Shown one piece after another: positions 5,907-30,283 of a stretch of 64,000 nucleotides of DNA. The position numbers were made by a program, and so were the translations under genes. Every line of letters begins with the position of its first letter. Position 1 is the first letter of the stretch. The notes below the pieces were generated by a model, which was not told the origin of the DNA, ran no database searches, and saw only the letters and a program-made list of their open reading frames with translations. The stretch spans positions 62,001 through 126,000 of the forward strand of contig QPMI01000176.1 of assembly GCA_004431415.1 (NCBI GenBank), read 5' to 3'. This DNA comes from Cyanophora paradoxa CCMP329. Its lineage: Eukaryota; Plantae; Glaucophyta.

Positions 5907-6057
5907 ATTTTTTTTGGTGAATTACCGGCCACAGCCTCTAGTCTACTCCAGCACTGTGGGGGCGTATACAGGCAAGGTGGGGTATGATCGATCGGATTTA
6001 TGTGGAACGGGCGGGATTCGAAGGCGTGATTCTCATCGCAGGGCGATTCGAACACGG
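5907..6057 (-). mobile_element. SINE-like repeat copy 1, interrupted by the virus (continues at 30255-30273)
   Basis: About 150 bp highly similar to 30284-30434. The minus strand has a B-box-like GTTCGAATC and ends in an A-tract. Confidence 0.55.
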
Positions 6058-6063
6058 AAGGCA
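6058..6063 (+). repeat. Left target-site duplication AAGGCA
   Basis: AAGGCA immediately precedes the left TIR and recurs at 30249-30254 immediately after the right TIR. 6-bp TSDs are typical of Polinton rve integrases. Confidence 0.92.
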
Positions 6064-6611
6064 AAAAAAATGAGAGAGAGCCGACCACGGTGGCCCACCC
6101 CTCTCCGCCACCCCCATCCCCTCACCCCCTCGCTTGCTGCACCAGCCCTAGCGTCCACCCCACTCTCCCTTCAACCCCGCTCTCTCGTTACGTCTACCCC
6201 GCTCTCTTGTTACGTCTGCCGGCCTTTTCCCTAGGTCAAAGCCTAGCAATAGCTCATGTCTATTCAAGACAGTGCTGACAACTAGAATAGACGAAGAGGA
6301 GCGCGGCCCCCCTTGAGCGCGGTCTGCATAGCAACGAAGCAGAATAGGCTAGACGATATTAATGTGTACAGAGAAGCTAACTGAGGAAACACGTTCAGCG
6401 CTAGCTATGCGATAATGATGTGTACAGCGAAGCTAACTGAGGAAACGGGTTCAGCACTAGCTGGGCGTGTTTACAGTCTGGAGCGAACGTGAGGCACAGC
6501 GCGGGCGAGCTCTATCTAGGCGCTTGGCGCAGCGTCGCTGCTTGTCTGCGACCAGGGGCAACCTCCCAAGCGGTACGGGCCCCCAGAGCGGTCTGGTGCG
6601 GCCTCGGGAGA
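6064..6611 (+). repeat. Left terminal inverted repeat, 548 bp
   Basis: Starts AAAAAAATGAGAGAGAGCCGACC and is the reverse complement of 29701-30248; one mismatch seen (GGTACGGGC vs GGTAGGGGC). Contains an internal ~58-bp-period direct repeat at 6361-6463. Confidence 0.96.
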
Positions 6612-6637
6612 GAAAACAAACGCGAAAGTGCCTATAG

Positions 6638-6930
6638 CTAGGCCTGCGCCTGCGCCTGTGTCAGAGCCTGCGCCTGTGCCTGCGCCTGAGCTCGAGTCTG
6701 CACCTGCGCCTGCACTTGAGCTTGTGCCTGCGCTTGCGCCTGTGCTATCAAGCAAGCTCTTCTCTGTAATATAACGTAATGACATAGCTATCGCTCTTGC
6801 TGCAGGGATTCTGTCCAACGGTCCCTGCATGTGCTTCGCGTTCTGCCGCTGACTCGCAGCTCTGCCTAACGCCGACTCGCGGTAGCGCTTCTTCTTTGCT
6901 CGCTCCTTCTCGGATGTCTTGAACTGCCGC
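6638..6930 (-). CDS. Left terminal gene candidate: basic segment followed by a (Gln-Ala)n tract; structure unresolved
   Basis: QFKTSEKERAKKKRYRESALGRAASQRQNAKH..AIAMSLR..EKSLL is homologous to the right-end ORF. The repeat at 6641-6745 reads QAQAQAQAQVQAQ..QA-stop with third-position variation in a frame different from the ORF-track frame. Confidence 0.4.
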
Positions 6931-7739
6931 TTAGGATGCAGAGCAGCAGTGCTGAGATTGCGCGGCGCGCTGAGCATGCGGAAGCTTCCAGGATCCAGAA
7001 GCTGCGCGGGATCGGCGCGAGACACACTCTATAGAACTGAGAAGCTTCCTAAACTTCTAGGTCGTCACATCCGATCGAAGCTTCCAGACTCGTCCTTTCG
7101 GTGCAAGCTCAAGCCCCAGACCAAGCCGTCAAGCTCAAGCCGGCTAGAGTGAACGTCTTTGGGCGAAACGTTCAAAAACTCGGAACTGCTGCGACGCCCG
7201 GCGCTCAAAGCTCGATTTATCGTTTTTGCGCATCGCACACAGTATCCAAACGCTTTGGCCGGCGCCCGGTGCGCTTCTGTGCAGAGATCAAGCTCGGCTA
7301 GCCACCCTCAAGCTAAGCCGGCTAGGGTGAACGTCTCAGGTCAAAAGCTCGGAACTGCTGCGGCGCCCAGCGCTGGAGACTTGTTTTGTCATTCTTCTGT
7401 ATCATAGTTAGTATGCGTACGCTTTGGCCGGCGCCCGGTGCGCTTCTGCGCTGAGGTCAAGCCGCCATACATTTTAGTCGTCAAACCCGACGATTAAAGA
7501 TCTCATCAACGCTGCGGTGCCTGAACGCGCTTGCTGCGGATTTCGTAATTATAGATCATGAAACTATGGAATACACAGCGGCTGGGTCCAAATCGATCTC
7601 TGTCATGAGAAACCATGGTAATCTGGGTCGAAACGTTCAGTCCTGTACGATTGGCTACTGTAGTGTACTAAGCACTGCTATAAATCGATTTTAAATGCAT
7701 TTGCGTATGCTTTTTAATCACCGCCGCAAGAGCGCCAAC
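6750..7739 (+). repeat. Left inner diverged inverted repeat (partner 28221-29055)
   Basis: For example GTCAAGCCGCCATACATTTTAGTCGTCAAACCCGACGATTAA at ~7456-7497 is the reverse complement of ~28464-28505. The left arm has a ~160-bp unit twice (~7133-7293, ~7312-7463) that is single on the right. Confidence 0.88.
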
Positions 7740-7837
7740 AAACAGCTGTTGTAACGGGGCGGACCCCCCGAAAGTGCACCGCCACCCTCATAGTGCACGG
7801 CATGCGGCCTGCGGAGCGCGCGCGGTCTGGTGCGGCC

Positions 7838-8182
7838 TCATTCCACTTGATCTGGTTGCTTTTCCGAAACTGGGGTCTTCTCCTTTCTGAAACTTGATAG
7901 CAAGGACTTCCTTCTTTTCAGTGGCTTTGGGATATTTGGGGGTGGCCAAGACAATCTTCGGCTTTCAGAATCATGCCACGGTATAGGTGAATCAGATCGT
8001 GTAAAAGGAGAATTGGACCTAGAAGTCCCGGGTGTGTTATTAGGCGATAGCTGAGTATCAGGGGTGCGTGACCCCTCAGTGTCAGATATTTCGAGATTGA
8101 TAGTTGTCTCACAGCAGCTGCATTTCAATTTGCTGGTGACGTTGAGATGGAACATCTCCATGCATTTACGAAGCAAATCCAT
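7838..8182 (-). CDS. Viral hypothetical protein, 114 aa, Ser/Pro-rich with a basic C-terminus
   Basis: ATG ORF co-oriented with the fibre cluster and preceded by TATATA; contains CSCC and a KPLKRRK NLS-like motif. Confidence 0.65.
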   Translation of the reverse strand: MDLLRKCMEMFHLNVTSKLKCSCCETTINLEISDTEGSRTPDTQLSPNNTPGTSRSNSPFTRSDSPIPWHDSESRRLSWPPPNIPKPLKRRKSLLSSFRKEKTPVSEKQPDQVE

Positions 8183-8213
8183 CTAGTATGGTCTATATAT
8201 AAAAACAAAGATT

Positions 8214-9047
8214 CTATGGGTTGGGATCAGCCCCTCCAATCGGGAAGTAACGATTCGAATTGAAGGTCTCACCATACTTGACCCCACTTGCAATCACATC
8301 TGTTCTTTCCGCAAATAGAATAATTTTATAGGCGCCCATAAGCGTTGCCCTCACAATAAACTGGTAATCTTCAACCCCTACTGGAGTAGAATGGAAAGCG
8401 ACACCAAAATTGTCAATAGGATTAATTAAAACAGCTATGTTTGGCCGGAGAGCATCATTTCTCCTACAAAGGAAGTAGATATCCGGGGGAATATCGACAA
8501 CACTCTTGAAATGGTTTCCGAGTGGCGGAACGTTATCTACGATTGATGTTTGCTCATTTATGTTTAGCGTGAAAAGTTTAATAATGTAAGGCGAATTCAT
8601 ACCAGGAACATACGTTCTGATTCTTTCATTAGTGTTTTCAGGGTTAGGTTGATCATTTACAAATATAGGGGCGCAAGCAGCGCCGCCCACTCTCAGGCCA
8701 TCTCCAATATAAGCACCTCCTGACCTGCAGGTCACAGCTCCTATTCTTGATTCGTAGGTAAAAGTATTAACCTTGTTAGCATCGTCATAGCTATCAGGAT
8801 CACCATAATGCGCATTAAAATTTGCGTTTGTTACGACAAGATTTGTTGTTTTGACCACTCCATTATTTTTGTCACATCTTACCTCTCCTAAACGTATGAT
8901 GTGATTATCTCGGAAGGTATTTAGAGTTGGCTGCTGCTCCGTTGATTGCAGGCCAGGCACATCATCTGAGACGGCATGCTGCAGGACGTGGTTGGCTGGA
9001 GCGGCGAGGGTCAACGATGGAACTACTATTCTTTCAACAGCTTCCAT
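8214..9047 (-). CDS. Viral protein, 277 aa, putative fibre/virion-associated; paralog of 9076..9924
   Basis: Shares QH.VSD, DKN.GVVKTT.L.VTNANF, RSGGA.I...RV.G and R.R.YVP motifs with the neighbour. The GAVTCRSGGAYIGDGLRVGG segment resembles viral fibre beta-repeats. Confidence 0.7.
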   Translation of the reverse strand: MEAVERIVVPSLTLAAPANHVLQHAVSDDVPGLQSTEQQPTLNTFRDNHIIRLGEVRCDKNNGVVKTTNLVVTNANFNAHYGDPDSYDDANKVNTFTYESRIGAVTCRSGGAYIGDGLRVGGAACAPIFVNDQPNPENTNERIRTYVPGMNSPYIIKLFTLNINEQTSIVDNVPPLGNHFKSVVDIPPDIYFLCRRNDALRPNIAVLINPIDNFGVAFHSTPVGVEDYQFIVRATLMGAYKIILFAERTDVIASGVKYGETFNSNRYFPIGGADPNP

Positions 9048-9075
9048 TTTAGAAAACAGAAGATAAAACTTTCAC

Positions 9076-9924
9076 TCAAGGTATAGGATTTTCCGGATTG
9101 CCTTCCTCATACATATTATTCAGTGCTGGATCAACGTTCAGCCCTCTAGTAGCCACTGATGCAGCCACATCGGAGCGATAGCCGATGATTAGGATAGAGT
9201 ATCGGCCTATCGCAGTAGCATATAAATCGAAAAGGTGCCTTGTATTAATATTACGAACTACGTATCCCCGCCCAGCATGTCCAAGACCTTGCACAAAGAA
9301 CGTATACACATGCCCTATCTGGTCATTTTGATCCTGGCAGAGAGATTGTAATGCTTTAGGGATTTCTCTGTTTGAAAGCAACCTCTCACCATCCAGACCA
9401 TTTGGTGTACTTGAATTAGCTATGGTTATTTCAACTTCTACTAGAGCTTGTGCATAGGGAAGGTCACAGCAAGGTACATACATGCGAACTCGTTTACGAT
9501 TTTCGACATTCTCTACTGAAAAGTCTGGGACATCATTGATGGCAATCGATGATGATAGGCCCCCACTAACTCGGCAGGCTCCGGTAATAGCTGCTCCTCC
9601 GGAGCGCACAGTCAGGGCAGCAGTGTTTTGATCATAGTTTATGCTTCGAAGGTCAACACTATATGAGTCAACTCCTCCTGTTATGGGCTGGGAGAAATTT
9701 GCGTTCGTAACCAGTAATCGAGTTGTTTTGACAACCCCAGAGTTTTTATCTGCGCGTAATTCTTTACAGCGAATCACTGATCGCTGATCAAATGCATTAG
9801 TTGAGTTTGGACGCTCAGTGGACTCTAATCCAGCAATGGCATCGCTAACTTCATGCTGCCTCATATGGATTGCTGGAGAGCCCAGTGAGTAGATTGGTAA
9901 CTGGACTCGGTTGTACTCGGTCAT
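9076..9924 (-). CDS. Viral protein, 282 aa, putative fibre/virion-associated; paralog of 8214..9047
   Basis: Clean ATG ORF with full-length similarity to the adjacent ORF, including the C-terminal AT..G.Y.I....R[ST]DV.A. Confidence 0.7.
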   Translation of the reverse strand: MTEYNRVQLPIYSLGSPAIHMRQHEVSDAIAGLESTERPNSTNAFDQRSVIRCKELRADKNSGVVKTTRLLVTNANFSQPITGGVDSYSVDLRSINYDQNTAALTVRSGGAAITGACRVSGGLSSSIAINDVPDFSVENVENRKRVRMYVPCCDLPYAQALVEVEITIANSSTPNGLDGERLLSNREIPKALQSLCQDQNDQIGHVYTFFVQGLGHAGRGYVVRNINTRHLFDLYATAIGRYSILIIGYRSDVAASVATRGLNVDPALNNMYEEGNPENPIP

Positions 9925-9961
9925 TTAATAGAAACGAAAGAGAAAAAATAATGTAGCAACG

Positions 9962-10267
9962 TCAAGCTGGAGTGATCAGATTTGATCCGAGAGCTTGATA
10001 GATAGTGGACAGGTTATGAAGTGACATCATCATAGTTTTCAGGTTGGAGTCGAGCTCATTATATTTGCTGGCAGGATCACCATATGCCGATTGGGCAAGG
10101 ACGTTAACCAAGAGGTTTTTATATTCATGAACAACAGGGGACAGTTTGTTAGTTTGCTGAATCGTTTTTTCGACATTTTGTAGTGCGGCTACAAGTTTGA
10201 TAGTATCGAATGCAAGAGCGACAGGCTCAGAAGTAGTAGTGGTTCCACCAAGTGGATAGGTTGCCAT
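9962..10267 (-). CDS. Viral hypothetical protein, 101 aa, probably helical
   Basis: ATG lies 3 nt after the fibre stop (TAATAAATG); no recognisable motif. Confidence 0.7.
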   Translation of the reverse strand: MATYPLGGTTTTSEPVALAFDTIKLVAALQNVEKTIQQTNKLSPVVHEYKNLLVNVLAQSAYGDPASKYNELDSNLKTMMMSLHNLSTIYQALGSNLITPA

Positions 10268-10270
10268 TTA

Positions 10271-13200
10271 TTATACAGCGACATTTTTAATTTGGTCTAT
10301 TTGACTTTGGAGATTTTCACATGTTTGTGTTAAATCTTTGCATTTCTGGGATAATTCTTTAACGGCTTCAATCAGAACCGGAATTAAACCTGTGTATTCA
10401 AGAGATAAATAACCATCATCTTGTTTCGCTCTCACAACTTCTGGTATAACCTGCTGTACATCTTGCGCAATTAAACCTAATCTTGTTCCATCTTGTTCAC
10501 TTCCGATTCGTTTAAAACTCACTCCTTCTAATTTCTCTATTGCTGAAAGAGCGTCGGTTATCTTTTTGATATCGGTTTTGTATCTTCTATCGCTACCTTG
10601 TCCGAGATAGTTTCTAACCCACATGTAACCGTCGTCATTTATAAATGCTACATGTGTATCCCACGTATTTCTAAATTCTACTACTGTTGTTGCATGTCCT
10701 CTAATATATGTAGTTGATGCTGAACCGAAATATATTCTTGAATAACCTTCACTTGAAGTAATCCAAGTTCCGGTTGCCCAAATGGTGCGTTCATCTTTAC
10801 TAAAAACGTTATCCCAACTTATAAAACCATTTGCTGGTGCTGTTCTTCCTTTTTCTTTTGTCCAACCAATCATACCAATGTGACATCTCCCTTTTCTTGC
10901 AACAAATCTTACATGGGAGAATGTATCACAATGGAAAGAAGTCCATGTTAAGCCATCATGCCAATCTGAATCGTAATTATTTGAAACGGCTTGGTAACAA
11001 TTTACCCTCATAATGTGATGCCACCTCCCATTTCGATAGCCTCCAATATCGAAATATCTGCAATTTGTCCAACACATATACTGAACATGACATGTTTTCA
11101 TATTGGCTGGGACTTCAATTTGTGCATAATCTGAACTTGTTTGATCATCTACATTGTTGCTATAAAATCCATCAATGGGATTAGTGTAAGAAGGAACCCA
11201 ACCTCCTGTCCAAGATCCAACATAATAAAGACTGTAACTACCATGTCCACTCCAAGTATCAAACCCTGTAATGTTTCCAATCGAATTGGTGACATCTGTT
11301 AATGATAGATAAGATGTAGGTATATTTGGCTTGCTATACACATTATTCCAATGAATATAACCAGTGTGACCACCATAACTATGCCCAACCCATATTTTCA
11401 TGAAACTAATACCCATAATGTGAACCCTTCCAATTCTTGCTTGAATTCGAATCCTTACAAATCGGTTTCCTAGGAAGATGGGGACATTATTCACACCACT
11501 ATGGTTATCATTTGCAGACCCTGCATAAGGGTGATAATTGTTGACAGTTGTTATGAAAATCGCATTGCCTTGTCGATTAATTCCCCAAATCTCGAAAATT
11601 CGTGTGTTGCCCCATGGTAAATGAGTCAGAAATGCTGACCCTGTGTGTAATCCATCGGGTATATTGTATTCAATCCAAGCGGAAGAGGTTTGGTCATCCA
11701 CTTCATTATTGTATGCATGCCCACCATAATTAAAATAGGGTTCCCAAGCTGAACCATAACCGAAATTCCAACCTCCAGAATAATTATATGGAGAACTGCC
11801 TGCAACATATCCATCATTTGAGTGAAGCTTAGGAACAGCATTACCATTTATTTGAAGATTCGTAGTAGCATTAATGGTAGATGCTGTGAGGGTATTATTG
11901 ACCCAAAGGTTACCATTGTCATAAGACTTCAAAATGGCTGTATCTCCTGAATTTCTAAATTCAATTGACACACCTTCACCATTCCCATACCCTCGAATAT
12001 ATGTTGTATTACCACTACCAAACCAAAACCTTGGAATATTATCTGTTGATTTGTGCCAGTCCACAGAGTTCACTGTCAATAGATCACCTAAAACGTTAGG
12101 GACTTCTGCCTTTGTTGCATAAGTGCCTGCAAAATCAGGTTTACTAAATACATTATCCCAAGAGATCATGCCCAATTCATTATCTGTTGCTCTCTGTCTG
12201 CTCCACCCAAAAACACCTGTGAGATGAATGCGACCTTTTCGACCTTGAACATAAATATATTTGTAAAACTCGCAATTGATAGAGACAAACAAGATTGTAT
12301 TATGTGTTCCATCCTGATTCACCTGTTGAATTCCCTGATAGGCATTTACTCGTTTTAAGAAATGTTGATATCCATTAGTTGTTTGCCCATAGATATCGAA
12401 ATATCTGCAATTATACCAAGGCATGTGCTGGATATAAAATGATTTCATACCTGTGGGAATGAGCCATCTCATCCAACAACCACTGCAATCTTCATCATTT
12501 TGTGGTGTGGTATGACATCCATTTTGCCCTGTTCTTGATGCCCAAGTAACAGTCCAGTTATTTGGAGATCTGTCTGTCGAAATAACATCTAATTGGTCGA
12601 AATCATAACCTTTTGGTATTGTGGTTCCACCAATTTGTAAAGTGGTAGCGTTAACGGTTCCAGTGACGGTTCCACCTGTGAGAGGTAAATAATTTGCAAG
12701 CGCCGTCGCTAATTCTGCATCGGTTGCATAACTGCTTAAATCCGCGGTCGTGAGATATCCTTTATTGGTAAGGTAATCATCTGGAACAACTCCTGAAAGG
12801 GTTGTATTGTGTAAGTTTTTCGCCGCCATTCTCTGATTGACTTCTAAGGCGCCACCTGATGTCGTTTTTATCCACGCCATCTCGCATTTCCCGTGGTCAT
12901 CTCTTGGTTGTCCCGCAAGCGGTGCGTAATTGAATTTCGAGCGACTAAATATAATTTTTGGACGTGAACCATCAGTTGCGCTTACATCGGTTACATTCAC
13001 TTGTAAAATGGCGTCTTTGTCATCATAAGTTGCTGGATCAGATGGTAGCGGTGGTAAACCTGTTGTTAATGGGATATCCGCATTATAGTAACTTGTTAGA
13101 TAAATACCCGGTTTGGTATCTATTAATGCATCACCACCTGCTGCAACTAATGTTGTTCTTGTGGGTTGTTTAATATATAATTCGCCTTCCATTGTGGTGC

Positions 13201-15634
13201 CTGCTTCAATTCCTTTTCGGTGTAAATAGTATTCACTTAATTGTAATCTTTCAGGGATGGTGTCACTCTGATAGAAACTAACCCCATAAAATCCATCACC
13301 ATTTACCACATCACCTGTCGATGCAAAACGTGGTTTTTCATCTATTTCGTCCCAATCGTGCCTGTGTGCAAAATCCGTAATATCTGCTTTGACATGTTCA
13401 TGTGCAAAATCCGTAATATCTGCTTTGACATGTTTGTGTGCAAAATCTGTGATCTGATCTTTGGTGTGAGTATGGGCAAAGTCTGTAATATCGGCTTTAA
13501 CATGTTCATGTGCGAAATCTGTTATTTGGTCTTTTGTATGAGTATGCGCAAAGTCTGTAATATCGGCTTTAACATGTTCATGTGCGAAATCTGTAATATC
13601 GGCTTTAACATGTTCATGTGCGAAATCCGTAATATCTGCTTTGACATGTTCATGTGCAAAATCCGTAATATCTGCTTTGACATGTTCATGGTCTTCTGGT
13701 GGGAATGTTTCGGGTTGATCTGGGATATTCTCCCATCTAAAATAATCTTCTGTTACCACTCTTGAAATATTTTCGTTGTGAATGTTTTTCGCTGCTGCTC
13801 TTTGATTGATTTCTAAAAGACCCTCAGGAACCCCACCATTATAATTTGTTTTTATCCATGCTACCTCACACTGTTTATAATCGTCACGATTTCCTAAAAG
13901 GGTTTCTGCTGCGAGTTGTTCACGACTGAATATAAGTTTTGGTCTTGATCCGTCCAAATCGCTAACATTTGTTACATTAATTTGTATAGTGGCGTTATGG
14001 TTTGCATAATTTACTGGATCAGATGGGAGAGGTGGCAAACCCATAGTCATCGGGATATCATCGGCGTAATAACTGGTTAGATAGATTCCTGGTTTATTCT
14101 CTTTAACTTCTACACCTCCACCTGCTGCGATCAATTCAATTCTTCTGGGAGGTCTAATATATATTTCGCCTTCCATTGTGGTGCCTGCATCAATTCCTTT
14201 TCGATTCAGGTAATATTCACTTAAAAGTAATCTTTGTTCGATGTTAATATTTTGGTAGAGACTCACACCATTTGTCCCATCAGTTAAAACATTACCTGTT
14301 GATGCAAAGGTAGGCTGTAAATCGATTTCGTCCCAATTATGCCTATGGTCTTCTGGTGGAAACTGCTCTGGTATTCCATCGATATCGCCCCAATCATGCC
14401 TATGGTCTGTGGGTGGAAATCTATCTGGTTTATTATCAATCTCGTCCCAATCATGTCTGTGTTCCTCCGGCGGAAAAGTCTCAGGTTTGTTCGTAATTGA
14501 TTCCCAGTCTACGGTGAACTCCAAGGGGAAGCAAATAGGATCAAAGCCGTCTGGAAGCAGCTGCTCATGGGGAATCACAGGCTGCTCGTACTCGAGTTCT
14601 TGAACATCTAAGCCATCAGGAAGTAACTGCTCTTCAGGCTCTGTGTACATTTCGAGTGGGAAAACTTCAATATCAGGCGGCAGGTATTCCTCATGTGGAT
14701 GCTTATAGGGTTCTATCACTGGACGATTCCTGACAGCCTCCCATGAAATAATATTTTGACCAAATGGGATTGTCTCATCGGCAACTCGCTCTCGACCTGG
14801 TCCATCCGGCGTTGGCGGCTTTGGTAGCCCTGGAAGAGGTGGTATAGGTGGTATAGGGACAATAGGTCCAAAGTAGTAGTTGAAAATGTTTATTATCTCC
14901 GGTTCAGTGATTACTTTTTTGCCGTCTTGGTAAATACTTGTTCCATGAATATTTCGCCACTGCCTGGTGCGAAGCCCTAGGTCATATCTATCATGCAATG
15001 CCGGGAGCAGGTGTCTGTCAGCTTCCATCAGGATCGAGCCAAAGGTGCATCCAGGAATATCTAACCTGGTAGCAGGCTCTGTATCAATTTGATTAACATC
15101 AAATCCGTATAAAATATTTGTTTCTCGTGCAGCTGTATAAAGTAAATCCCAGGGAAATGGTTGGATTTGCGATGCTAGCACTGATATTCCTGCGTCTTCA
15201 CCAAGGAGGATTCGCCCTGTAATTTGAGCAGCAGTCTTGTTTGTGATGGCATTGGATTCATCAATTAGACGTAGAGCTGATATATGGATCCCTCTATCAT
15301 TTTGAAGCCTAAATATTAATCTACCAGAATCATACTTAGAAACTGTGCCTGAGGAGGCAATGTGTAGGTGTCGTGGCAATGCCCTTGATCCGACTATTTC
15401 AGCCACATAATTCTCAGCTGGACCCAGACAAAATCTCTGTGCGATATTTGGGGCACCGACGTGTGAATTGCGCAGAATTAACGCAGCTGGACGATTAAAA
15501 GCGGTCTGGTGTATATCCTTGTCAGAATTGTAGTCAATTAGAGTGCTCCCGAATACACGGATATTTATAAGCCGATCATCCACGGTATCTGGAGCTTTAC
15601 GAAGTGGCACTGGCTTCTTCAAGATGTAGGACAT
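10271..15634 (-). CDS. Phage-like tail fibre, 1787 aa, with HxH repeats and a C-terminal peptidase S74 intramolecular chaperone
   Basis: C-terminal SDRRYKTDIKKI..ALSAIEKLEGVSF..GLIAQDVQQVIPEVV..LSLEYTGLIPVLIEAVKEL plus coiled coil; HRHxWxxIxxxPxxFPP and H[ETK]HxKxxITDFA repeats; internally repeated globular modules. Confidence 0.9.
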   Translation of the reverse strand: MSYILKKPVPLRKAPDTVDDRLINIRVFGSTLIDYNSDKDIHQTAFNRPAALILRNSHVGAPNIAQRFCLGPAENYVAEIVGSRALPRHLHIASSGTVSKYDSGRLIFRLQNDRGIHISALRLIDESNAITNKTAAQITGRILLGEDAGISVLASQIQPFPWDLLYTAARETNILYGFDVNQIDTEPATRLDIPGCTFGSILMEADRHLLPALHDRYDLGLRTRQWRNIHGTSIYQDGKKVITEPEIINIFNYYFGPIVPIPPIPPLPGLPKPPTPDGPGRERVADETIPFGQNIISWEAVRNRPVIEPYKHPHEEYLPPDIEVFPLEMYTEPEEQLLPDGLDVQELEYEQPVIPHEQLLPDGFDPICFPLEFTVDWESITNKPETFPPEEHRHDWDEIDNKPDRFPPTDHRHDWGDIDGIPEQFPPEDHRHNWDEIDLQPTFASTGNVLTDGTNGVSLYQNINIEQRLLLSEYYLNRKGIDAGTTMEGEIYIRPPRRIELIAAGGGVEVKENKPGIYLTSYYADDIPMTMGLPPLPSDPVNYANHNATIQINVTNVSDLDGSRPKLIFSREQLAAETLLGNRDDYKQCEVAWIKTNYNGGVPEGLLEINQRAAAKNIHNENISRVVTEDYFRWENIPDQPETFPPEDHEHVKADITDFAHEHVKADITDFAHEHVKADITDFAHEHVKADITDFAHTHTKDQITDFAHEHVKADITDFAHTHTKDQITDFAHKHVKADITDFAHEHVKADITDFAHRHDWDEIDEKPRFASTGDVVNGDGFYGVSFYQSDTIPERLQLSEYYLHRKGIEAGTTMEGELYIKQPTRTTLVAAGGDALIDTKPGIYLTSYYNADIPLTTGLPPLPSDPATYDDKDAILQVNVTDVSATDGSRPKIIFSRSKFNYAPLAGQPRDDHGKCEMAWIKTTSGGALEVNQRMAAKNLHNTTLSGVVPDDYLTNKGYLTTADLSSYATDAELATALANYLPLTGGTVTGTVNATTLQIGGTTIPKGYDFDQLDVISTDRSPNNWTVTWASRTGQNGCHTTPQNDEDCSGCWMRWLIPTGMKSFYIQHMPWYNCRYFDIYGQTTNGYQHFLKRVNAYQGIQQVNQDGTHNTILFVSINCEFYKYIYVQGRKGRIHLTGVFGWSRQRATDNELGMISWDNVFSKPDFAGTYATKAEVPNVLGDLLTVNSVDWHKSTDNIPRFWFGSGNTTYIRGYGNGEGVSIEFRNSGDTAILKSYDNGNLWVNNTLTASTINATTNLQINGNAVPKLHSNDGYVAGSSPYNYSGGWNFGYGSAWEPYFNYGGHAYNNEVDDQTSSAWIEYNIPDGLHTGSAFLTHLPWGNTRIFEIWGINRQGNAIFITTVNNYHPYAGSANDNHSGVNNVPIFLGNRFVRIRIQARIGRVHIMGISFMKIWVGHSYGGHTGYIHWNNVYSKPNIPTSYLSLTDVTNSIGNITGFDTWSGHGSYSLYYVGSWTGGWVPSYTNPIDGFYSNNVDDQTSSDYAQIEVPANMKTCHVQYMCWTNCRYFDIGGYRNGRWHHIMRVNCYQAVSNNYDSDWHDGLTWTSFHCDTFSHVRFVARKGRCHIGMIGWTKEKGRTAPANGFISWDNVFSKDERTIWATGTWITSSEGYSRIYFGSASTTYIRGHATTVVEFRNTWDTHVAFINDDGYMWVRNYLGQGSDRRYKTDIKKITDALSAIEKLEGVSFKRIGSEQDGTRLGLIAQDVQQVIPEVVRAKQDDGYLSLEYTGLIPVLIEAVKELSQKCKDLTQTCENLQSQIDQIKNVAV
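13367..13690 (-). repeat. Nine tandem 36-bp coding repeats (HEHVKADITDFA / HTHTKDQITDFA)
   Basis: Counted directly in the fibre translation and the DNA. Confidence 0.95.
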
Positions 15635-15658
15635 TTTTATATAGGCCTCCTTTTAAAA

Positions 15659-18022: not shown

Positions 18023-18049
18023 TTTTATTCTCTAACTGATATAAAAAAG

Positions 18050-19006: not shown

Positions 19007-19081
19007 GCTAAGCTCGCGGCACGCAAGCAAGCCTTGGCGAAGCGCCCAAATTATTTTCTTTCACTGCAATTATATAAATCG

Positions 19082-20468: not shown

Positions 20469-20530
20469 TCGAATTGTCGTCAGACAAGCTGCCTTGGCTG
20501 CGCCTGCGAATCTCGGTAGTTAATTTTTTG

Positions 20531-21271: not shown

Positions 21272-21280
21272 GAACAGAAG

Positions 21281-21910
21281 ATGGCAAGAGGCATTCCTAA
21301 GAAGGGATATCGTGAAAGACGCAAGGTCAATGTTGTTGAACCACTAGTCGAAAGTGGTGCAACAGAGGGCGCAGCTGTAGCTAATCCTAGCGGGGAGCTC
21401 GCAAGTGACCCCAAACTAAACGCACCCGTTGCTAAAACAATTGCCTCCGCAGCAGCTAACGCCAGTGCAATTGACGACCGACAAAGCCAGGTCAAAATTG
21501 TAAACGAAATGCAGTCTGATATTGATGATGATGCTGCTAGAATTTTACAAGCGATGGCGTCTGAAGCGCGGTATTCAGGGCCTAAAATCAAGACAGCAAC
21601 GGTGTCAAAAAGTCAGATTGACGAGTTGGCTGCCAAATTGCGTGATCTAGAAGCGAGGTCGGCTAATATCGAATCATATGTAAAAGATAAGCAAGAAAGA
21701 GCTAAGATCCGCGAGATGTTGCGAAGCGAAATGTTTAAGCACAGATCTATGGATGTACCAGATTTGCGCTATTTGAAAAATGAAAAAGCTAAAGCCGAGC
21801 AATCGCTTGACTCTGCCGAAGTAAAACCAGCAACTCCAAATGTTTTTGAACCCAATTCTACGAGCTCGCAGATGAAGAATGCAATGGGTGGGAGAAGGAT
21901 TCGGTTGTAA
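21281..21910 (+). CDS. Viral hypothetical protein, 209 aa, basic N-terminus and coiled coil
   Basis: ATG ORF 9 nt after the ATPase stop; heptad-like IDELAAKLRDLEARSANIESYV. Confidence 0.75.
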   Translation: MARGIPKKGYRERRKVNVVEPLVESGATEGAAVANPSGELASDPKLNAPVAKTIASAAANASAIDDRQSQVKIVNEMQSDIDDDAARILQAMASEARYSGPKIKTATVSKSQIDELAAKLRDLEARSANIESYVKDKQERAKIREMLRSEMFKHRSMDVPDLRYLKNEKAKAEQSLDSAEVKPATPNVFEPNSTSSQMKNAMGGRRIRL

Positions 21911-22433
21911 AATTCAGACGCAGAAATGGACGGTCCTCAGCTGAAGTATGCTGAAGGGCATAGGTGTCTCTGGCTTTAGCAGCAGCTTCAGCAGTAGTAA
22001 AGTATCCGATGTGTTTCAGACGACCATTTATCCCATAATGCGCCTGCCATTTTTCACGCTGCTGATGGAACGATACACCAATGAAACCGCTGGTGTTTGT
22101 GACCCGCCGATTCTGGTTTAAACTCTGCTGGCGCTTTGTCGCAAGTCGCAGGTTCTCGCGACGATCATCGAGTTTGTTTAGATTTATGTGATCGACAGTT
22201 AAACCGTTCTCCAACTCGCCGCTGATAAAATTATGCAACAACACGGTCTTCCCATTTATTTTGGTGGCAGCATATCCATTGGTATTTAACCACCAGCGAA
22301 ATCCAAGCACGCGCTGAGAATCATCCTGTGAAACAAGCGCATAAGCGACAACAATTCCGTTTCTGCCATTCCTACGACCAGTAATTGGAATCAACGCAAC
22401 ACCTTCAGGGACATCTGGAATTGTGACCTCCAT
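21858..22433 (-). CDS. HNH-AP2 endonuclease, 191 aa
   Basis: LLHNFI..VDHINLNKLDDRRENLRLAT (HNH) followed by NTSGFIGVSF..KWQA..KHIGYFTTAEAAAKARD (AP2). Confidence 0.92.
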   Translation of the reverse strand: MEVTIPDVPEGVALIPITGRRNGRNGIVVAYALVSQDDSQRVLGFRWWLNTNGYAATKINGKTVLLHNFISGELENGLTVDHINLNKLDDRRENLRLATKRQQSLNQNRRVTNTSGFIGVSFHQQREKWQAHYGINGRLKHIGYFTTAEAAAKARDTYALQHTSAEDRPFLRLNFTTESFSHPLHSSSASS

Positions 22434-22487
22434 TTGGCGCAGCCGAGCTGCTTGTCTGCGACTTTACAATCTGAGATTGAGATATCT

Positions 22488-22724
22488 TTAAGGTAAATCA
22501 AAATCGGGCAGATCCTCTCCTTCTACAGTTGCTCGATCATTCGATTGACAAATTTCAAAGGCCCGCTGCAATTCCCTTTTATCGTATTCACGGAGATGTT
22601 CCCAAGACATTAACCATTCGGCGTATTTCGGATCGGTTAAAACAACTTTCAGATGAGTTTCGCCACGGTATTTTCCAAATCGAATTGTTCCTGAGGCGCA
22701 GCGTCGCTGCTCGTCTGCGACCAT
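22488..22724 (-). CDS. Small FGKY-motif protein (DUF3820 / ExoX C-terminal-like), 78 aa
   Basis: IRFGKYRGET..V...DPKYAEWL motif; TATATAA upstream. Confidence 0.75.
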   Translation of the reverse strand: MVADEQRRCASGTIRFGKYRGETHLKVVLTDPKYAEWLMSWEHLREYDKRELQRAFEICQSNDRATVEGEDLPDFDLP

Positions 22725-22825
22725 TTTGCTTTATATAAACCGCTGCGATTTAATTTTTCGATTTGAACGCGCCATAAACGTTTCTCGAATTTCTTTCCTA
22801 TATATCAATCACAGACCCACTCATA

Positions 22826-23143
22826 ATGGACAGTGCTGAATTCACGACTGCTTCCCGTCCACGAGGCAGGCCTCGCAAGAATTTTGAGAAGCCTGCGCAC
22901 ATACGTACTGAGGTTACGCCAGAGATACTTGCAGAGAGACGCAAAAGACGTGCAGAGCTGCAGCGAAAGCGATACCATGAAAATCAAGATTACCGGCAGC
23001 GACAGATTGCTGTCTCCCGTCAATATAACCTTGCACACCCTGAACGAAAACTGGACAACGACCGAAAATACCGAGAGCGAAGGCGCACTGAAATTAGGTC
23101 GCTAATTGCGGCGGGCATAGTTTCCAGCGACCTTACTGCCTAA
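22826..23143 (+). CDS. AT-hook basic DNA-binding protein, 105 aa
   Basis: RPRGRPRK AT-hook followed by an Arg/Lys-rich helical region. Confidence 0.72.
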   Translation: MDSAEFTTASRPRGRPRKNFEKPAHIRTEVTPEILAERRKRRAELQRKRYHENQDYRQRQIAVSRQYNLAHPERKLDNDRKYRERRRTEIRSLIAAGIVSSDLTA

Positions 23144-24031
23144 CCGCAGCGAAGGCTCCCCTGCAACCTCTAGTTTCTTGAGCTCACGAGCTTGTCGACT
23201 TTGTCCGCTATACTTTTTCGTTTCAATGAGACCCTCGCGCCGTAACTGTTGCTCTTGCTTTGCTTTGGCCGCAGCTCGTTCTATTTTTGACTGATTCGGA
23301 AGCTGTCTCGGGGCTCGAATTTCTGAAGGCTTGATTCTACGGCTTAATATCTGTCCCTCTTTGGTTGCGACCCTTATTCGGTTCCTGTCCTGCCCCACGA
23401 CTGTGTACGTCTCCTTGCTCCGTTTCGTAGTTCCCTTTGCAAAGATGCTGCTCTTAGGCTCCAGTATCTGCACCTCAGTCCCTGGCTTTGGTAGATTCAA
23501 CGCGTCTCTCTCAATGTCGTTCTGTCGTTGACGCACCTGGTGCAGCTGGGCAGCGACCTGCGGGTGATCTCGCATCCAGGCTGGTGAATACTCTCTGCCA
23601 AAAGAGCTGTGTTTTGTTTGGTTGTATGCCTTGATCAAAGCAGGCAGCCGGGAGAGAAAATTCGGCGACCCTCGTTCCTCTGTGTCTGCCTGAATCAGGG
23701 CTCGCAACGTCCGTGCGAATCGATCGATGATTGCTAGCTTGTCGCCTTTCGATATGTGATCATCCTTAGCGACGTCAGTGTGCATCGAAAATGAATTCTC
23801 TTCGGCCATTGCCCGCACAGCAGCCGTATTAAAGCCATTGTCGCCCGAAAAACCCCAGATCCCCGGCAGCTGAGCGATGAATTTCGGAATCTGTTTAGCA
23901 TCTTCAAGCTTTCTGACAACGGCGAATCGAGTTGCAATCTCAATCGCTGCAAATAGTCGAAAACGTCCTATGAAAAGTATGTCGACTTGATATGCCCCTG
24001 GTGGAGCAGTAATTTTAAATGAGGGCGCCAT
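23102..24031 (-). CDS. Retroviral-type (rve) integrase, 309 aa
   Basis: YQVDILF (D1), FSGDNGF (D2), IIDRFARTLR (third acidic residue), YNQTKHSS..SP and C-terminal G..V.I...FAKG..S.E.YTV; consistent with the 6-bp TSD. Confidence 0.9.
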   Translation of the reverse strand: MAPSFKITAPPGAYQVDILFIGRFRLFAAIEIATRFAVVRKLEDAKQIPKFIAQLPGIWGFSGDNGFNTAAVRAMAEENSFSMHTDVAKDDHISKGDKLAIIDRFARTLRALIQADTEERGSPNFLSRLPALIKAYNQTKHSSFGREYSPAWMRDHPQVAAQLHQVRQRQNDIERDALNLPKPGTEVQILEPKSSIFAKGTTKRSKETYTVVGQDRNRIRVATKEGQILSRRIKPSEIRAPRQLPNQSKIERAAAKAKQEQQLRREGLIETKKYSGQSRQARELKKLEVAGEPSLRLGSKVAGNYARRN

Positions 24032-27000
24032 TAGTTATTTGAAAGATTTTTAAAGTGACCTATCGCCCTGGTGTTCACACCATCCTCGCACAGGAATCGC
24101 TTGGTATCAAGCGGGTGCAGGGCTTGCTTTGATGTCCGCTGTAGCCAGATCTGGTGCTGCTTCGATCTGAAGCCGAGAATCCCCTCTACGTTGCATGATT
24201 TGCCCCCAAAGATGCAGTCGTAGTATCGCTCTCGTGTCAGCGAGCTGCTGAACGTCTTGTTAACGCCCTTGCACTTGTGCACTTCTGATTCCTCTGTGCT
24301 CATATAGTACGATTTCGGTCGGTTCGCGATCCACTCAAGCATTTGCCTGCCGCCACACTCGTCCTTGAACAGCCCGGGAACCTTGCCCATCGATCGTAGT
24401 CGCTGCACTTCAGCTGCTGGCATCCCCTCGAAGAACGGGTGACTCGTAGGGTATTCACTGACATCTAGCTCGCATTTGATTTTGCGAAGGTCCTCGTATA
24501 AATTTTCGGTCTCAATCTGAATTATGAGACTGTCTGTATCTGTTCCAAGTAGCTTAAGCCGCTGGCCCCAGAGCGGTTTGAGCACCTGGTAGTAAAACCG
24601 ATACATGTGCAGCTTTGACAAATCAAGGATTGCGAATCCACAGTAGATCGGTTTGTTGAGTGTGTATTCGCTCTTTCGCTTATTTACGTACACCAAGTTC
24701 TCGGCATAGACAGCGACCTGTCTCAAGCGATTTGGCTCTGTGTTGATTTTCGCCAGTCGTTCTCCTGATGTCACAAGCTCGGAATTGCAGTGCTTGCGCA
24801 CATTCTCCATCGTTTTCCCAAACACCGCATTATTTAGTAGCTTGTAGAGATCTTTTTCATACGGGAATTCCGCCTGCTTTCGCTTCATAGTATTCAAATC
24901 AATGTAGCTCTCAAGCCATGCACTTTGCTCGTACGAAAGCATTCTGTGTATTTTGGTAACAACCATCCCCATCGACACATAAAACTGCAACACTCGTGCG
25001 TCCACTACGTAATTCTTCTTCGGCAGCAAGTTTGGAACTAGCTTTGGCGTTCTCTCGATTCCACTAAGCTTTTCGTTTTCAATCGATTCTTGTTGTTTTG
25101 CCGACAGGTGCTCTTTTGATACGCACATGCGCTCAGGAGCTAGCGGGTAATCGCTGAAATAATCATGCAGCTCTTCAGGACAATGCATGTCAACCTCCAG
25201 AGAAAAACCCCTTGAACCATGAACATCAAGGTCTGTGATATACAGTTTAGGATCAGTAATACCACTGACGTCCTCCCATTTGAAGTCCCCTGTCGGTAGT
25301 TTTTGTTTCATAGAAAGCCCATAAAGGTTGTTCGCATCGAGGTACAGTAACCAGCCCTGCTTTTTTCTGTGACCCACGATGTACTTATCAATCCAGGCAT
25401 TATTAGCTCGAGCATATCTTTTTGATATCATAGAGATTCCTCCACGGATCCCTTTCTCAATAAAGCGGTGCATATCCTCCTGCCCTCCGTGGAACAGCTC
25501 CAGTTGCTGGCCGGTGTGTTTCAAAGCTGCTTGCCATGAGAACCCAGGAATGCTCATAAAGTAGCTGGGGTCCAGCTTGTACGTCTCCATACACGTGTCC
25601 CGGTAGTTTTCAAAGACGTCTGCTAGTAAAGCTATGTCTGTCTTCATGTACTCCATTGTATAATCAGCCATTGTCCTGCAACCAAGCTCACGCCAGACCG
25701 ACTGAGCGTGGGCATAATCATCCCGAGAGCACTTCGACTGCTTTAGCTCGTTGTAAAATTGGCGGCGCCCTGGTAGTGATGTCTCTGCAAGACGATCCCA
25801 GCCAGTAATGTACTTGTATGGATAGACACCCTTGCGCGTCATTAGTTTGAACCGTGTCTCATCCTCATGCAGTGCACGCGTGATTTTCTTTTTCTCATCA
25901 GGTACTGCAGCCGCAAGGCTATCGAGACTGCCCTGCAGGTGCTGAGCAGAGTCACGGAAAACGTAAATGCCGTATGTGAACTGTGAAATGCGCTCGCTGT
26001 TCTGAAACACCTGGTCAAACTTCGTTGACAGTAACTCACGAGGACGTAGTGTGCGCTCAAGCCGCTTCCTTGCATTTTTCGCATGATCTGCGCTCAGCTC
26101 ACGCCCTGCGTATTTGGCTTGAAACTGGCGCTCAACCTCGGCTCTGAATGCATTTTCTGCGACTTTCCGCCGGTTATAGCCTGCTGCCAGAGCCCTCACT
26201 AATAGATGAAAGTCAAATCCTCGGCCATTGTGAAAGAAGATTGGCACAGCGGCAGCTTTTGCTCGTCGCCTGTTGCAGGCCCTGCATGCCGCTCCAAGGT
26301 ACTGCCCAGAATCATGGCAATGATCACGATGTTTATCTTTGCCTCCTTTGAACTCGCTTCCACACATATAGCACGTTTCTGCTGCCTGAAAGGAGCGCTC
26401 TTGCGCCTGCGTAATCTGCATCGGCGCTTCCTCCTCCAAAATTCCCTTAAACTGCGGCTCCTTTTCATCGAGCCAAGCAATAAATGCCTCTGCAGACTCC
26501 TCAGTTGGGCTGCCCATATGCGAGAACCAAAAATGCTCCTGTCGCCTCGGCTCTGAATTTTCAACGCTGTCTGCAGTTGCATTCGTCCCTTGATTTTGTC
26601 CCTTGTTTACTACGACTAAGCAGCCGATCGAAGCTATCGCGTGGACTCCTAGCTGCTTCGTCTTTGCTGGACTCTCGGTCTGCAAAACAGGTAGAGTCAT
26701 TGTTTCCGAGTCAGCATATCCAACAAGCCTTTGCCGAATCGTCTTCTCGAAGCTGTTGAATTTTATAAAGTGCTCGCCCTTTTCGGAAGCACGTCCCTGG
26801 CGTGCTCATCTCGATCAAGGCACCGGTCGTATTTAAGATGATTCTGAAAGGCCTCGTCTGAGCCAAAGCCGCACTGGCAGGCCAAGCAATAGTGCTTCGC
26901 ATTCGACCCATGCTTTCCAAACAGTCGCGATATGTTCTTTATCCACAAATAATGTCCCACATCATTCCCGTCGCCTGCTGGCACGTACAGTATCGGTATA

Positions 27001-28073
27001 GCATCCGTTGCTGCGCTAATGTGGATCGGAACGATGTCTTGCTTGTCTAGCGCAGTCGTGTAGACGCAGAGCTTAACATTATTCGCACACTCAAATTTGC
27101 TGAACATTTTCGAATCGAGTGGCGTCGGATACGTGAGCATTGTACAATCTAGCGATGCCTCATGCTGCCGATAGCTTCCTGCATGCCTCGAATCCACCCC
27201 TGGGGCCAGCGGATTGCGCGCTGCGAGGACAGCATATTTAAAGCACTCGTTGTTTGGTGCATTGATATTGATCAAGGCCTGCTTGAGTGCAAGCCAGCTC
27301 GGAAGTACAAACCCGCGTCCGCGGCCGCCCATACGTCTGAAGTATCTAATCACGGTAAAGCGTAGCTTAATCCACGTCTCGAAGGCGGAAGAATCACGGC
27401 TCTTTTCCTGCGCAATAGTATCTAGCTCTTCCAGCTGTGAGCGGATCGTCTCAACAACGTCTGAGCCTGGGAGTATGCGGTAAAATTTCCTGTGCTCAAT
27501 CACTACTGCAAGCGCTGAGTCTTCGTTAGGCTTGCGATAGAGTCCGACTCCTGAGACCTGCAAAGCTATGCCCATTCGATCCTGACTTGCTAATTCTTGC
27601 TGCACGCTCGCAAACGCCACTGCGCCTGCTCTGAACCTCGCATTATTTTCGAGCTGCGCCTGCATCGACGTGACTCGGCCTGTTCCACGTGAGGGCCGGT
27701 ACTCCCAGTCAGCGTATGTCCCGTTCAGCGCTGTTCGTGTCGTCACTGTGCCGTCCTCCTCTGCAATTTCAGTTTCGCTGAACTCGCTCACGCTCGGATC
27801 GGGCAGCTCTGAAAATCCTGCTACAATCCCCTCAGCAATAGCAAGCTCTAGCCGTGCAGCTGCAACTGGTCTCGGCGGCCTCGGTACTGTTGACAGCTCG
27901 TTCAAAAGTGATGCGTATTTTTGTAGTGTCGGCAGTCGCGTGCGTGAGCCACTCGCACTGATGCGCTGCAGTTTGTTTCTGAATTGCCCATGAATAAACC
28001 TGCGATTGTACAAAACCTCGGCCTGGCCTGCTATCTGCTCTTTGAGCCGCGCGATCTCAAACCGTCGCTCCAT
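24031..28073 (-). CDS. Protein-primed family B DNA polymerase, ~1347 aa when one -1 frame change near 26780 is repaired
   Basis: Motifs YLDANNLYG, KLLNNAVFGK and GTDTDS; exonuclease GYADSE (just upstream of ATG 26700, same frame) and FFHNGRGFDFH; Endo-VII-like CYMC..DHCH..G.Y.GAAC..CN. The 436-aa upstream ORF (LININAPNNECFKYAV..HYLWIKNISRL..CLAC) is the expected N-terminal part. Confidence 0.95.
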
Positions 28074-28220
28074 TTAACAATAGCACTCCAAAAGATTTTC
28101 AGAGAAAGCGCGCAACCAACCGCTCGTTCCTATAGGGCGGTGCGATTCCTTTATAACATGTCACTGAGGCACATTGTGTGGTAGATCGCAGCTGGTGCTG
28201 CTTGGAAAACTGATAGCTGA

Positions 28221-29055
28221 GTTGGCGCTCTTGCGGCGGCGATGTAAAAGGATACGCAAATGCATTTAAATTCGAATTCTAGTAGCGCTTATAACACTAC
28301 AGTAAGCAGTCTTAGAAGGCATGACGTTTTGACCCCGTAAACCGCGGTTCCTCGCGACTGAGATCGAATTGGACCAAACCGCTAAGTATGCTACAGTTTT
28401 ATGATCTATATGTACGAAATCCGCTGCGATCGTGTTCAGGCGCAGCAGCGTTGCTGAGATTCTTAATCGTCGGGTTTGACGACTAAAATGTATGGCGGCT
28501 TGACCTCAGCACAGAAGCGCACAGGGCGCCGGCCAAAGCGTACGCATGCTTAGTATGATGCGAAAGAACGATAAAACAAGCCTCCAGCGCTGGGCGTCGC
28601 AGCAGTTCCGAGCTTTTGAACGTTTTGCCCCGAGACGTTCACCCTAGCCGGCGTGAGCTTGACGGCTTGGTCTCCGGCTCGGTCTCCGGGATCCGGCTTG
28701 GATCCGGCTTGGATCCGGCTTGAGCTTGGCGGACGTGACGCGCGCCGAAAGGACGAGTCTGGAAGCTTCCCGGACGTGACGGCCTGGAAGTTTAGGAAGC
28801 TTCTCCGTTCTATAAAGTGTGTCTCGCGCCGGCCCCGCGCATTCGAAATCTCACTCTCTCAACACCACGCTGGATCCTAAGCAGCCGCGGCAGTTCAAGA
28901 CTCCCGAGAGGAAGCTAGAACAGAATCGGCGCTACAAGAAGTCGGAGTTGGGCAAAGCTGCGAGACAGCGGGAGAACGCGAAGCACAGGGCTAGAACCGC
29001 TGCCGCAAAAGCGATAGCTATGTCGTTGCGTACAGATCTAGAGAAGAGCTTGCTT
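28221..29055 (-). repeat. Right inner diverged inverted repeat (partner 6750-7739)
   Basis: Block-wise reverse-complement similarity to the left arm, from GTTGGCGCTCTTGCGGCGG to AGAGAAGAGCTTGCTT. Confidence 0.88.
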
Positions 29056-29082
29056 GCAGAGGCGACCTACGAGCACGGACGC

Positions 29083-29685
29083 ATGGCGACGGACGCGCAG
29101 GATCCGGACGCGCCTTCAGCCCTCGGGAAGCGGGCGCGCGAGGCAAACAATGCCGATGCTCTCCGCAAGGAGCTCGCGGACATCAAAGCAAAGCTCGCTA
29201 AACAGGAGCAGCGCAATGATTGTGACCGCATTGATGCTGAAATAAGGCAGGCGATTGCAGCTGCTCGTGATGGCTTCAAAGAGCAGCACCTACACTTTCT
29301 CTTCAACCTACGCCGTGATTTGATGGTATGCCACCGACCGCCTGGCAGTTTAACGCTATCAAATGCCAGCTACACCGCCAGGCAACACGCGAGTCCGCGG
29401 GGTTCGCGACGAACGCGAAGATCTGGACCATGTACAACAAACACTGGACAGAGCTCCTTAAGCTCGTGCGTACCACTTGTTACATGGCTTTCAGTTATGT
29501 TCAGCGGTCCATAACCTGCGCAGCATCGACTCTACGAGGAAGCCGACACGGATCCGAAGGCCAATGCGGAGGCCGAGGCGGAGGCAGAGGCCGAGGCAGA
29601 GGCCGAGGCGGAGGCCGAGGCAGAGGCCGAGGCGGAGGCCGAGGCGGAGGCCGAGGCGGAGGCCGAAATGGAGGCCGATACGTAG
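29083..29685 (+). CDS. Three-exon viral terminal gene: coiled-coil protein ending in (Glu-Ala)n, 162 aa (183 aa from ATG 29020)
   Basis: Exons 29083-29325, 29382-29465 and 29524-29685; introns GTATGC..TTAAC..CGCCAG (56 nt) and GTGCGT..ATAAC..GCGCAG (58 nt). Splicing gives one open frame ..NLRRDLM-ATRESAGF..TELLKL-HRLYEEADTDPKANAEAEAE..EMEADT*. Confidence 0.7.
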
Positions 29686-29700
29686 ATCTAGACCGACGCA

Positions 29701-30248
29701 TCTCCCGAGGCCGCACCAGACCGCTCTGGGGGCCCCTACCGCTTGGGAGGTTGCCCCTGGTCGCAGACAAGCAGCGACGCTGCGCCAAGCGCCTAGATAG
29801 AGCTCGCCCGCGCTGTGCCTCACGTTCGCTCCAGACTGTAAACACGCCCAGCTAGTGCTGAACCCGTTTCCTCAGTTAGCTTCGCTGTACACATCATTAT
29901 CGCATAGCTAGCGCTGAACGTGTTTCCTCAGTTAGCTTCTCTGTACACATTAATATCGTCTAGCCTATTCTGCTTCGTTGCTATGCAGACCGCGCTCAAG
30001 GGGGGCCGCGCTCCTCTTCGTCTATTCTAGTTGTCAGCACTGTCTTGAATAGACATGAGCTATTGCTAGGCTTTGACCTAGGGAAAAGGCCGGCAGACGT
30101 AACAAGAGAGCGGGGTAGACGTAACGAGAGAGCGGGGTTGAAGGGAGAGTGGGGTGGACGCTAGGGCTGGTGCAGCAAGCGAGGGGGTGAGGGGATGGGG
30201 GTGGCGGAGAGGGGTGGGCCACCGTGGTCGGCTCTCTCTCATTTTTTT
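29701..30248 (-). repeat. Right terminal inverted repeat, 548 bp
   Basis: Ends GGTCGGCTCTCTCTCATTTTTTT; reverse complement of 6064-6611. Confidence 0.96.
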
Positions 30249-30254
30249 AAGGCA
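30249..30254 (+). repeat. Right target-site duplication AAGGCA
   Basis: Identical to 6058-6063. Confidence 0.92.
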
Positions 30255-30283
30255 TGAATTGAAAAGCGTGAAATAAACAATTT

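Follow-up and report, generated by a model that had tools for sequence, protein, structure and literature searches.

The window analysed here is a 64,000-nucleotide stretch of the genome of the glaucophyte Cyanophora paradoxa CCMP329 (assembly GCA_004431415.1, contig QPMI01000176.1, positions 62,001 to 126,000 of the forward strand). Positions 6064 to 30,248 are occupied by an element of 24,185 bp with a GC content of 47%, compared with 68% in its flanks, which is interpreted with considerable confidence as a complete, recently inserted glaucophyte Polinton-like provirus. Protein-primed copying, insertion by an rve-type integrase, packaging into a double jelly-roll (DJR) capsid and entry by means of a fibre and a patatin are all predicted for it from protein families. 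Seventeen genes were found, counting those for the major capsid protein (MCP) and the polymerase pPolB once each; they fill 84% of the element and 98% of the interval 7838-28073. The tight gene packing given in the initial annotation was retained, its count of about 20 open reading frames (ORFs) was not. The ends carry a target site duplication (TSD) and terminal inverted repeats (TIRs).

6058-6063, plus strand: left TSD copy, AAGGCA
6064-6611, plus strand: left TIR, 548 bp, starting with A7-TGAGAGAGAG
6830-7739, no strand: left arm of an inner degenerate inverted repeat, with blocks 81-90% like 28221-28987
28221-28987, no strand: right arm of the inner degenerate inverted repeat
29701-30248, minus strand: right TIR, 548 bp, with a copy of a 27-bp motif at 29760-29786
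30249-30254, plus strand: right TSD copy, AAGGCA

The TIR arms are identical at 547 of 548 positions, the sole mismatch being at 6576, and form the longest inverted repeat of the window. The left arm contains 22-bp and 56-bp tandem units, plus one copy of the 27-bp motif. An exact 6-mer TSD is expected by chance at approximately 2e-4. Since the TIRs are near-identical and the TSD is intact, the insertion is recent, as had been proposed; the near-identical 548-bp TIRs, the 6-bp TSD and the A7-led termini of the initial annotation were likewise recovered. The termini read AAAAAAA-TGAGAGAGAG, i.e., A7-TG. TG...CA is the usual retroviral end, and here it sits just within the A7/T7 runs of the element, whereas the TSD lies outside those runs. 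Because the runs lie inside the TSD, the integrase would join whole, unprocessed ends at a target cut staggered by 6 bp. That the inner inverted repeat (~0.9 kb) is coding was considered and rejected, its substitutions being without codon periodicity; it is likely non-coding, and may be a remnant of TIRs that were once longer or a pair of duplicated regulatory arms.

The capsid and packaging genes lie in the centre of the element.

17135-18022, minus strand: penton-family protein 1, 295 aa
18050-19006, plus strand: penton-family protein 2, 318 aa
19082-20468, plus strand: MCP gene in three frames, with breaks near 19296 and 19657
20531-21271, plus strand: A32-like packaging ATPase (Pfam Pox_A32, PF04665, E 2e-9)

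Identity to P0001, an unbroken 456-aa EukProt protein labelled Cyanophora paradoxa, is 73, 64 and 60% for the three MCP pieces. P0001 corresponds to gene_47449 in Table S2 of Bellas 2023 (PMC10120064), where it is listed as an MCP with an HHpred score of 98.5% to an iridovirus MCP. The same source gives 366 MCP hits for the C. paradoxa genome, in clusters of 272 and 94. Among 1.84 billion representatives, only P0001 and P0002 were genuine relatives of the MCP; P0003 and P0004 were dropped as low-complexity chance matches, and no relatives were confirmed in viral (IMG/VR) and metagenome (JGI) contigs. Similarly, a related-locus search in viral contigs confirmed no relatives of the MCP, integrase, ATPase or pentons.

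For penton 1, ESM Atlas gave 0.97-0.98 to DUF5901 and Sputnik V18/19 clusters, which is below the recognition threshold, and hhalign gave 57% (E 1e-4) against a penton profile. Penton 2 matched Pfam DUF5901 with E 0.04 and the profile with 90% (E 1.6e-6). Among 21 proteins compared with the profile for pentons of Polinton-like viruses (PLVs), these two alone exceeded 5% probability, the other 19 remaining below. The DUF5901 and ESM Atlas matches lend weak support to the penton identity independently of this profile. The two proteins gave no BLAST alignment with each other, AlphaFold modelled penton 2 with a pLDDT of 35, and a homologue search yielded 0 among 1338 candidates. The two pentons of the initial annotation were kept on moderate evidence (DUF5901, ESM Atlas, hhalign). 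A maturation protease was found neither by Pfam and PHROGs nor by a six-frame motif scan, all three being of limited sensitivity, and ORFs without a family remain; the statement that no adenain-like protease is recognisable agrees with this.

The replication and integration genes lie on the minus strand.

23102-24031, minus strand: rve-type integrase, 309 aa, with an acidic triad that has D at the last position
24031-28073, minus strand: pPolB with endonuclease VII (Pfam), in two frames

The ORF at 26763-28073 aligns with full-length pPolB proteins at their N-terminal end; it is therefore part of a single polymerase gene that a frameshift divides in two. The integrase scored 0.96 to rve clusters in ESM Atlas and gave tblastn matches to the integrases of related viral loci. 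The 22 viral loci that bear pPolB have only pPolB, integrase, ATPase or HNH in common with the element. Taken together, the Pfam and ESM Atlas matches and the homology to P0001 uphold the viral (PLV) identity proposed from pPolB, rve integrase, A32 ATPase and MCP.

Several results on individual proteins weigh against this assignment. The AlphaFold model of the MCP relative, built on a two-row alignment, has a pLDDT of 35 and gave no Foldseek match. Profile searches of the same protein against Pfam and PDB were without a match, and hhalign of the MCP against two sets of putative PLV MCPs remained below 1%. The integrase has no Pfam match. The penton profile, made from related viral contigs, is partly circular, 10 of its 12 rows having been chosen by a hidden Markov model built from these two proteins.

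The element is a PLV in the broad sense, and its capsid family had been catalogued before. It has homology to a catalogued MCP, penton genes, an A32 ATPase, and TIRs and an integrase within the 14-40 kb size range. The proposal of an undescribed lineage was given up, since the MCP family is already in Table S2 of Bellas 2023; the lineage is distinct as an unplaced group, not as an undetected one. The element has the reduced morphogenetic module without protease that Bulzu et al. 2025 (PMC12220804) describe as typical of Aquintoviricetes. Features of Virophaviricetes were not found, P0001 being without a Pfam match and no protease having been detected. In Table S4 of Bellas 2023 (PMC10120064), by column count, C. 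paradoxa has zero in the virophage columns and its counts stand in the block 'Iterative HMM searches'.

A true Polinton/Maverick (Polintoviricetes) that has lost its protease is a highly improbable alternative. It would account for the pPolB and rve genes, the long TIRs and the 6-bp TSD, which together with an endonuclease VII insert in a pPolB adjoining the integrase are shared with animal Polintons/Mavericks of the alpha-adintovirus type. The best named pPolB matches are animal Polinton proteins (37-44%), and according to Starrett 2021 (PMC8502044) contigs of C. paradoxa contain variants of PolB and integrase that are alpha-adinto-like. Against it, a midpoint-rooted pPolB tree of 38 sequences, made without an outgroup from 20 of the 120 listed pPolB matches and 17 of the 22 pPolB-bearing viral loci, separates the gene, on a long branch of its own, from the animal clade with support of 0.97-0.99; an animal-Polinton origin of the gene was rejected on this basis. 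The MCP is unrelated to that of animal Polintons: it has no PF21738 match, and with a shallow query profile hhalign gave 0.1% against a five-row alignment, three rows of which match PF21738. Neither an adenain-like protease nor 5'-AG ends were found. Polinton ends, as reportedly noted by Kapitonov and Jurka, begin with AG, unlike the A7 ends of the element.

Compared with other systems, the element shares its MCP family and S74 fibres with the endogenous PLVs of Cyanophora paradoxa, and discoidin, by itself or as a patatin fusion, is known from Glaucocystophyceae PLVs (PMC10120064, PMC12220804). The text and supplement rows consulted in the two papers give neither a genome map nor terminal sequences for this family, and neither a number of pentons nor a cis-motif. 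Gezel-14T and PgVV (Aquintoviricetes) have in common with it an MCP, a minor capsid protein (mCP), an A32 ATPase, a long phage-like fibre and a lipase; they are described with TVpol, a tyrosine recombinase, an alpha/beta-hydrolase instead of a patatin, and a AAAATTGA promoter that is absent from the element. Several Trimcap group B PLVs have two mCP genes, like the element, but three MCP genes versus its one (Bellas and Sommaruga 2026 preprint); the main text of that preprint does not mention Cyanophora. No paper devoted to Cyanophora PLVs or to A-run termini was found in a search that covered few subscription papers.

The left half of the element is taken up by the fibre and patatin genes and by ORFs without a family.

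10271-15634, minus strand: fibre gene, 1787 aa
15659-17143, plus strand: patatin phospholipase (Pfam E 3e-25; PDB patatins match)
7838-8182, minus strand: ORF, 114 aa, no family
8214-9047, minus strand: ORF, 277 aa, paralogue of 9076-9924, no family
9076-9924, minus strand: ORF, 282 aa, paralogue of 8214-9047, no family
9962-10267, minus strand: ORF, 101 aa, no family

The fibre consists of short shaft repeats, three Trp-rich domains of ~150 aa and a C-terminal S74 chaperone (Pfam S74, E 1e-16), with a further match to PHROG tail fibres; the Trp-rich domains are mutually 29-34% alike and have no family match. The patatin carries the GGGARG, GTSTG and DGA motifs, and its C-terminal domain of ~165 aa is discoidin-like by eye, with no Pfam or PDB match. 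The paralogous ORFs at 8214-9047 and 9076-9924 are 36% identical (E 2e-41); as the pair has no family, their label as fibre genes is unproven, and from its position the former may be structural. The fibre cluster plus patatin had been said to cover more than a third of the genome. This holds, at 37%, only if the three ORFs without family at 8214-9047, 9076-9924 and 9962-10267 are counted; the S74 fibre and patatin make up 28%. The claim of an unusual entry module was not supported either, since S74 fibres, a glaucophyte-PLV patatin, a missing protease and doubled pentons are published PLV traits. Bulzu et al. 2025 (PMC12220804) describe S74 fibres as ubiquitous in PLVs and list discoidin, alone or patatin-fused, in 11 Glaucocystophyceae PLVs, and virions of Gezel-14T are reported to contain fibre and lipase (Gezel-14T preprint).

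In this assembly the MCP gene is broken twice and the pPolB gene once. The element was thus confirmed as complete but not as intact, with the MCP in three frames and pPolB in two. All three breaks lie within short homopolymer runs, each as a one-base difference, and sister-copy contigs differ at the three sites. The frameshifts are probably long-read consensus or assembly errors rather than mutations. False frameshifts of this type are documented for multi-copy endogenous viral elements (EVEs) by Bellas 2023 (PMC10120064), and the remaining long genes, including the 5.4-kb fibre gene, are open. It is unlikely that the element is instead a dead provirus, in which real slippage frameshifts have killed capsid and polymerase and any mobility would depend on proteins of intact sisters. 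Such a provirus would show the same three breaks; homopolymers are also natural slippage sites, and one TIR mismatch in 548 is compatible with a few indels in 24 kb. Among the contigs listed, none excludes the version of the window. Two properties of the short-read contigs leave room for real breaks and speak against assembly error: contigs lose rare variants, and they contain only ~60% of the words of the window.

The element belongs to a multi-copy family, whose sister copies were assessed in four short-read runs; 1267-2620 contigs per run covered 15000-30440, and variant sites were numerous. In each run, contig depth falls by a factor of 3-4 at about 21.7 kb; for run X20 it is 4,903-10,952 over 15000-21694 and 993-2,878 over 21695-28389 (13 bins each). 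Single contigs at the start of the patatin gene reach depths of 1920 (X4), 4088 (X8) and 4638 (X20), and those of the integrase and pPolB ~600 (X4), 1100-1260 (X8) and 1170-1200 (X20). Scaled to single-locus depth, this suggests ~30-35 copies of the capsid half versus ~10 of the replication half, with the caveat, which counts against a literal reading, that contig depth is not a copy number. Replication halves of less than 88% identity escape the contig comparison. We infer that in most sisters the replication half is probably another one, has diverged further or is deleted. Reassortment of modules is reported as general by Barth 2026, which also places transpoviron-like elements on EVE_QPMI01_83, a name with the prefix of the C. 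paradoxa assembly. In all four runs, sister contigs (depth 314-796) link the MCP end to the opposite-strand ATPase at 20472-20555; some copies therefore have the ATPase region in reverse orientation.

The element also contains internal copies of the 27-bp motif, an imperfect palindrome of the form GTCGCAGACAAGCWGC-N2-4-GCTGCGCC.

19018-19046, plus strand: degenerate copy, upstream of the MCP gene
20476-20504, plus strand: copy upstream of the ATPase gene
22436-22462, minus strand: copy immediately before the HNH start codon
22695-22721, minus strand: copy overlapping the first codons of the ORF at 22488-22724, with 26 of 27 bases as in the TIR copy

The motif was found in both TIRs and at 20476, 22436 and 22695, with the looser copy at 19018; its pattern was defined after five sites had been seen, the copy at 22695 coming from the scan. 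It occurred 0 times in 39.8 kb of flank and 0 times in 100 shuffles. Between the TIRs, each copy precedes the MCP, ATPase, HNH or 22488 gene or coincides with its beginning, and always has the orientation of that gene. Sister copies diverge, delete or invert around the ATPase copy at 20476 and have an extra motif copy between the pentons. Four of the 15 joints listed (21 in total) end within 15 bp of a motif copy, three of them at one copy; another joint has its first base at 29786, where the TIR copy ends, and loose contig ends begin one base past the ATPase copy (20505). Intergenic gaps account for 352 of 13,074 bp, and because viable variants break in gaps anyway, a promoter-like site and a recombination site are indistinguishable here. 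The motif is most likely a protein-binding regulatory site that also provides microhomology. In IMG/VR, nine single matches were obtained, which is about chance level, and no contig had several; no description of the motif was found in the literature searched.

A more far-reaching reading, that the Cyanophora capsid lineage is deep and possibly glaucophyte-only and shuffles its modules at a dedicated 27-bp site, one capsid module being combined with different replication modules, is regarded as improbable. If true, motif-guided exchange would explain, at the level of sequence, how small eukaryotic DNA viruses come to be mosaic. If the motif is a recombination or regulatory site, replication-capsid reassortment of PLVs would become testable inside one genome.

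From these genes the following cycle can be proposed. The pPolB, with its N-terminal terminal-protein region, would prime at the A7 ends. Phi29-like phages use slide-back initiation, which a terminal A-run would suit. MCP, the two pentons and the A32 ATPase would build the particle without a maturation protease. The S74 chaperone is predicted to fold a trimeric fibre whose three repeated domains may bind the cell surface, and the patatin would breach the membrane; the model for both is the fibre and lipase content of Gezel-14T particles. Sister copies would share the capsid half and differ in, or lack, this replication half.

Autonomous replication in the nucleus has a serious competitor, to which a somewhat less than even chance is given: a virophage-like defence element that is silent in the uninfected alga and, once a giant virus has entered, borrows the transcription machinery of that virus and curbs its yield. 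Gezel-14T and several Tetraselmis PLVs are described as dependent on giant viruses, the element has no RNA polymerase gene, and its upstream regions are mostly short AT-rich, TATA-like stretches. It has, however, 0 AAAATTGA early motifs, no glaucophyte giant virus turned up in the searches, and lifestyle is not readable from these sequence data. As the host is an early-branching, culturable alga, particle formation and giant-virus dependence are testable there; in addition, the element can serve as a reference copy for its capsid family, which has been known since 2023 and has few known relatives.

A joint compatible with the right junction was present in three of the four short-read runs, at depths of 38, 60 and 64, about half as deep as other single-locus-like contigs (56-64, 120-133 and 117-135). 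It may be that a single allele, or a fraction of the cells, carries the insertion. A host repeat surrounds the provirus, 5894-6058 recurring at 30271-30435 with 95% identity. A joint 5894-6064 was considered as a second insertion into this repeat and dropped, 5894 being the exact start of the second repeat copy at the right junction; it is most likely the own junction of the window, though 22 expected intervening bases are not listed. The host repeat (5840-6063 and 30255-30440) is very high-copy, with a summed depth of up to 390,000 in short-read contigs. It begins with a T10 run and a strong hairpin (z -3.75), and viewed on the minus strand it is SINE-like, with a 3' stem-loop and poly(A); an Rfam scan of the right flank repeat (30200-30480) gave no match. 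Its start, TGAGAGACTACGGTGG (5849-5870), is similar to the virus terminus TGAGAGAGAGCCGACCACGGTGG (6071-6093), a likeness that was spotted after the fact and may reflect chance or a related non-autonomous element.

The remaining ORFs of the element were as follows.

21281-21910, plus strand: ORF, 209 aa, no convincing family
21858-22433, minus strand: HNH-AP2 endonuclease (Pfam HNH_3, E 6e-10; AP2, E 1e-4)
22488-22724, minus strand: ORF, 78 aa, weak ExoX-like C match
22826-23143, plus strand: basic ORF, 105 aa, with an AT-hook
29020-29514, plus strand: ORF, 164 aa, no family, possibly broken at its 3' end

The 105-aa protein is likely DNA-binding, given its AT-hook. Bulzu et al. 2025 (PMC12220804) tie rve integrases to 6-bp TSDs.

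In the host flanks, an intron-rich gene for a papain-like cysteine protease was recognised by eye from translations on the minus strand (~3500-5763), with its start ~300 bp outside the left provirus boundary. An RWP-RK transcription factor is encoded at 43755-45245 (Pfam E 8e-21); to our knowledge RWP-RK genes are absent from animals, and this gene would fit an algal host. A MORN-repeat-like gene was seen by eye at ~47400-49000. Finally, an AT microsatellite of 130 bp lies just right of the insertion (30464-30593), and a tandem repeat with a unit of ~198 bp extends from 39556 to 40170.

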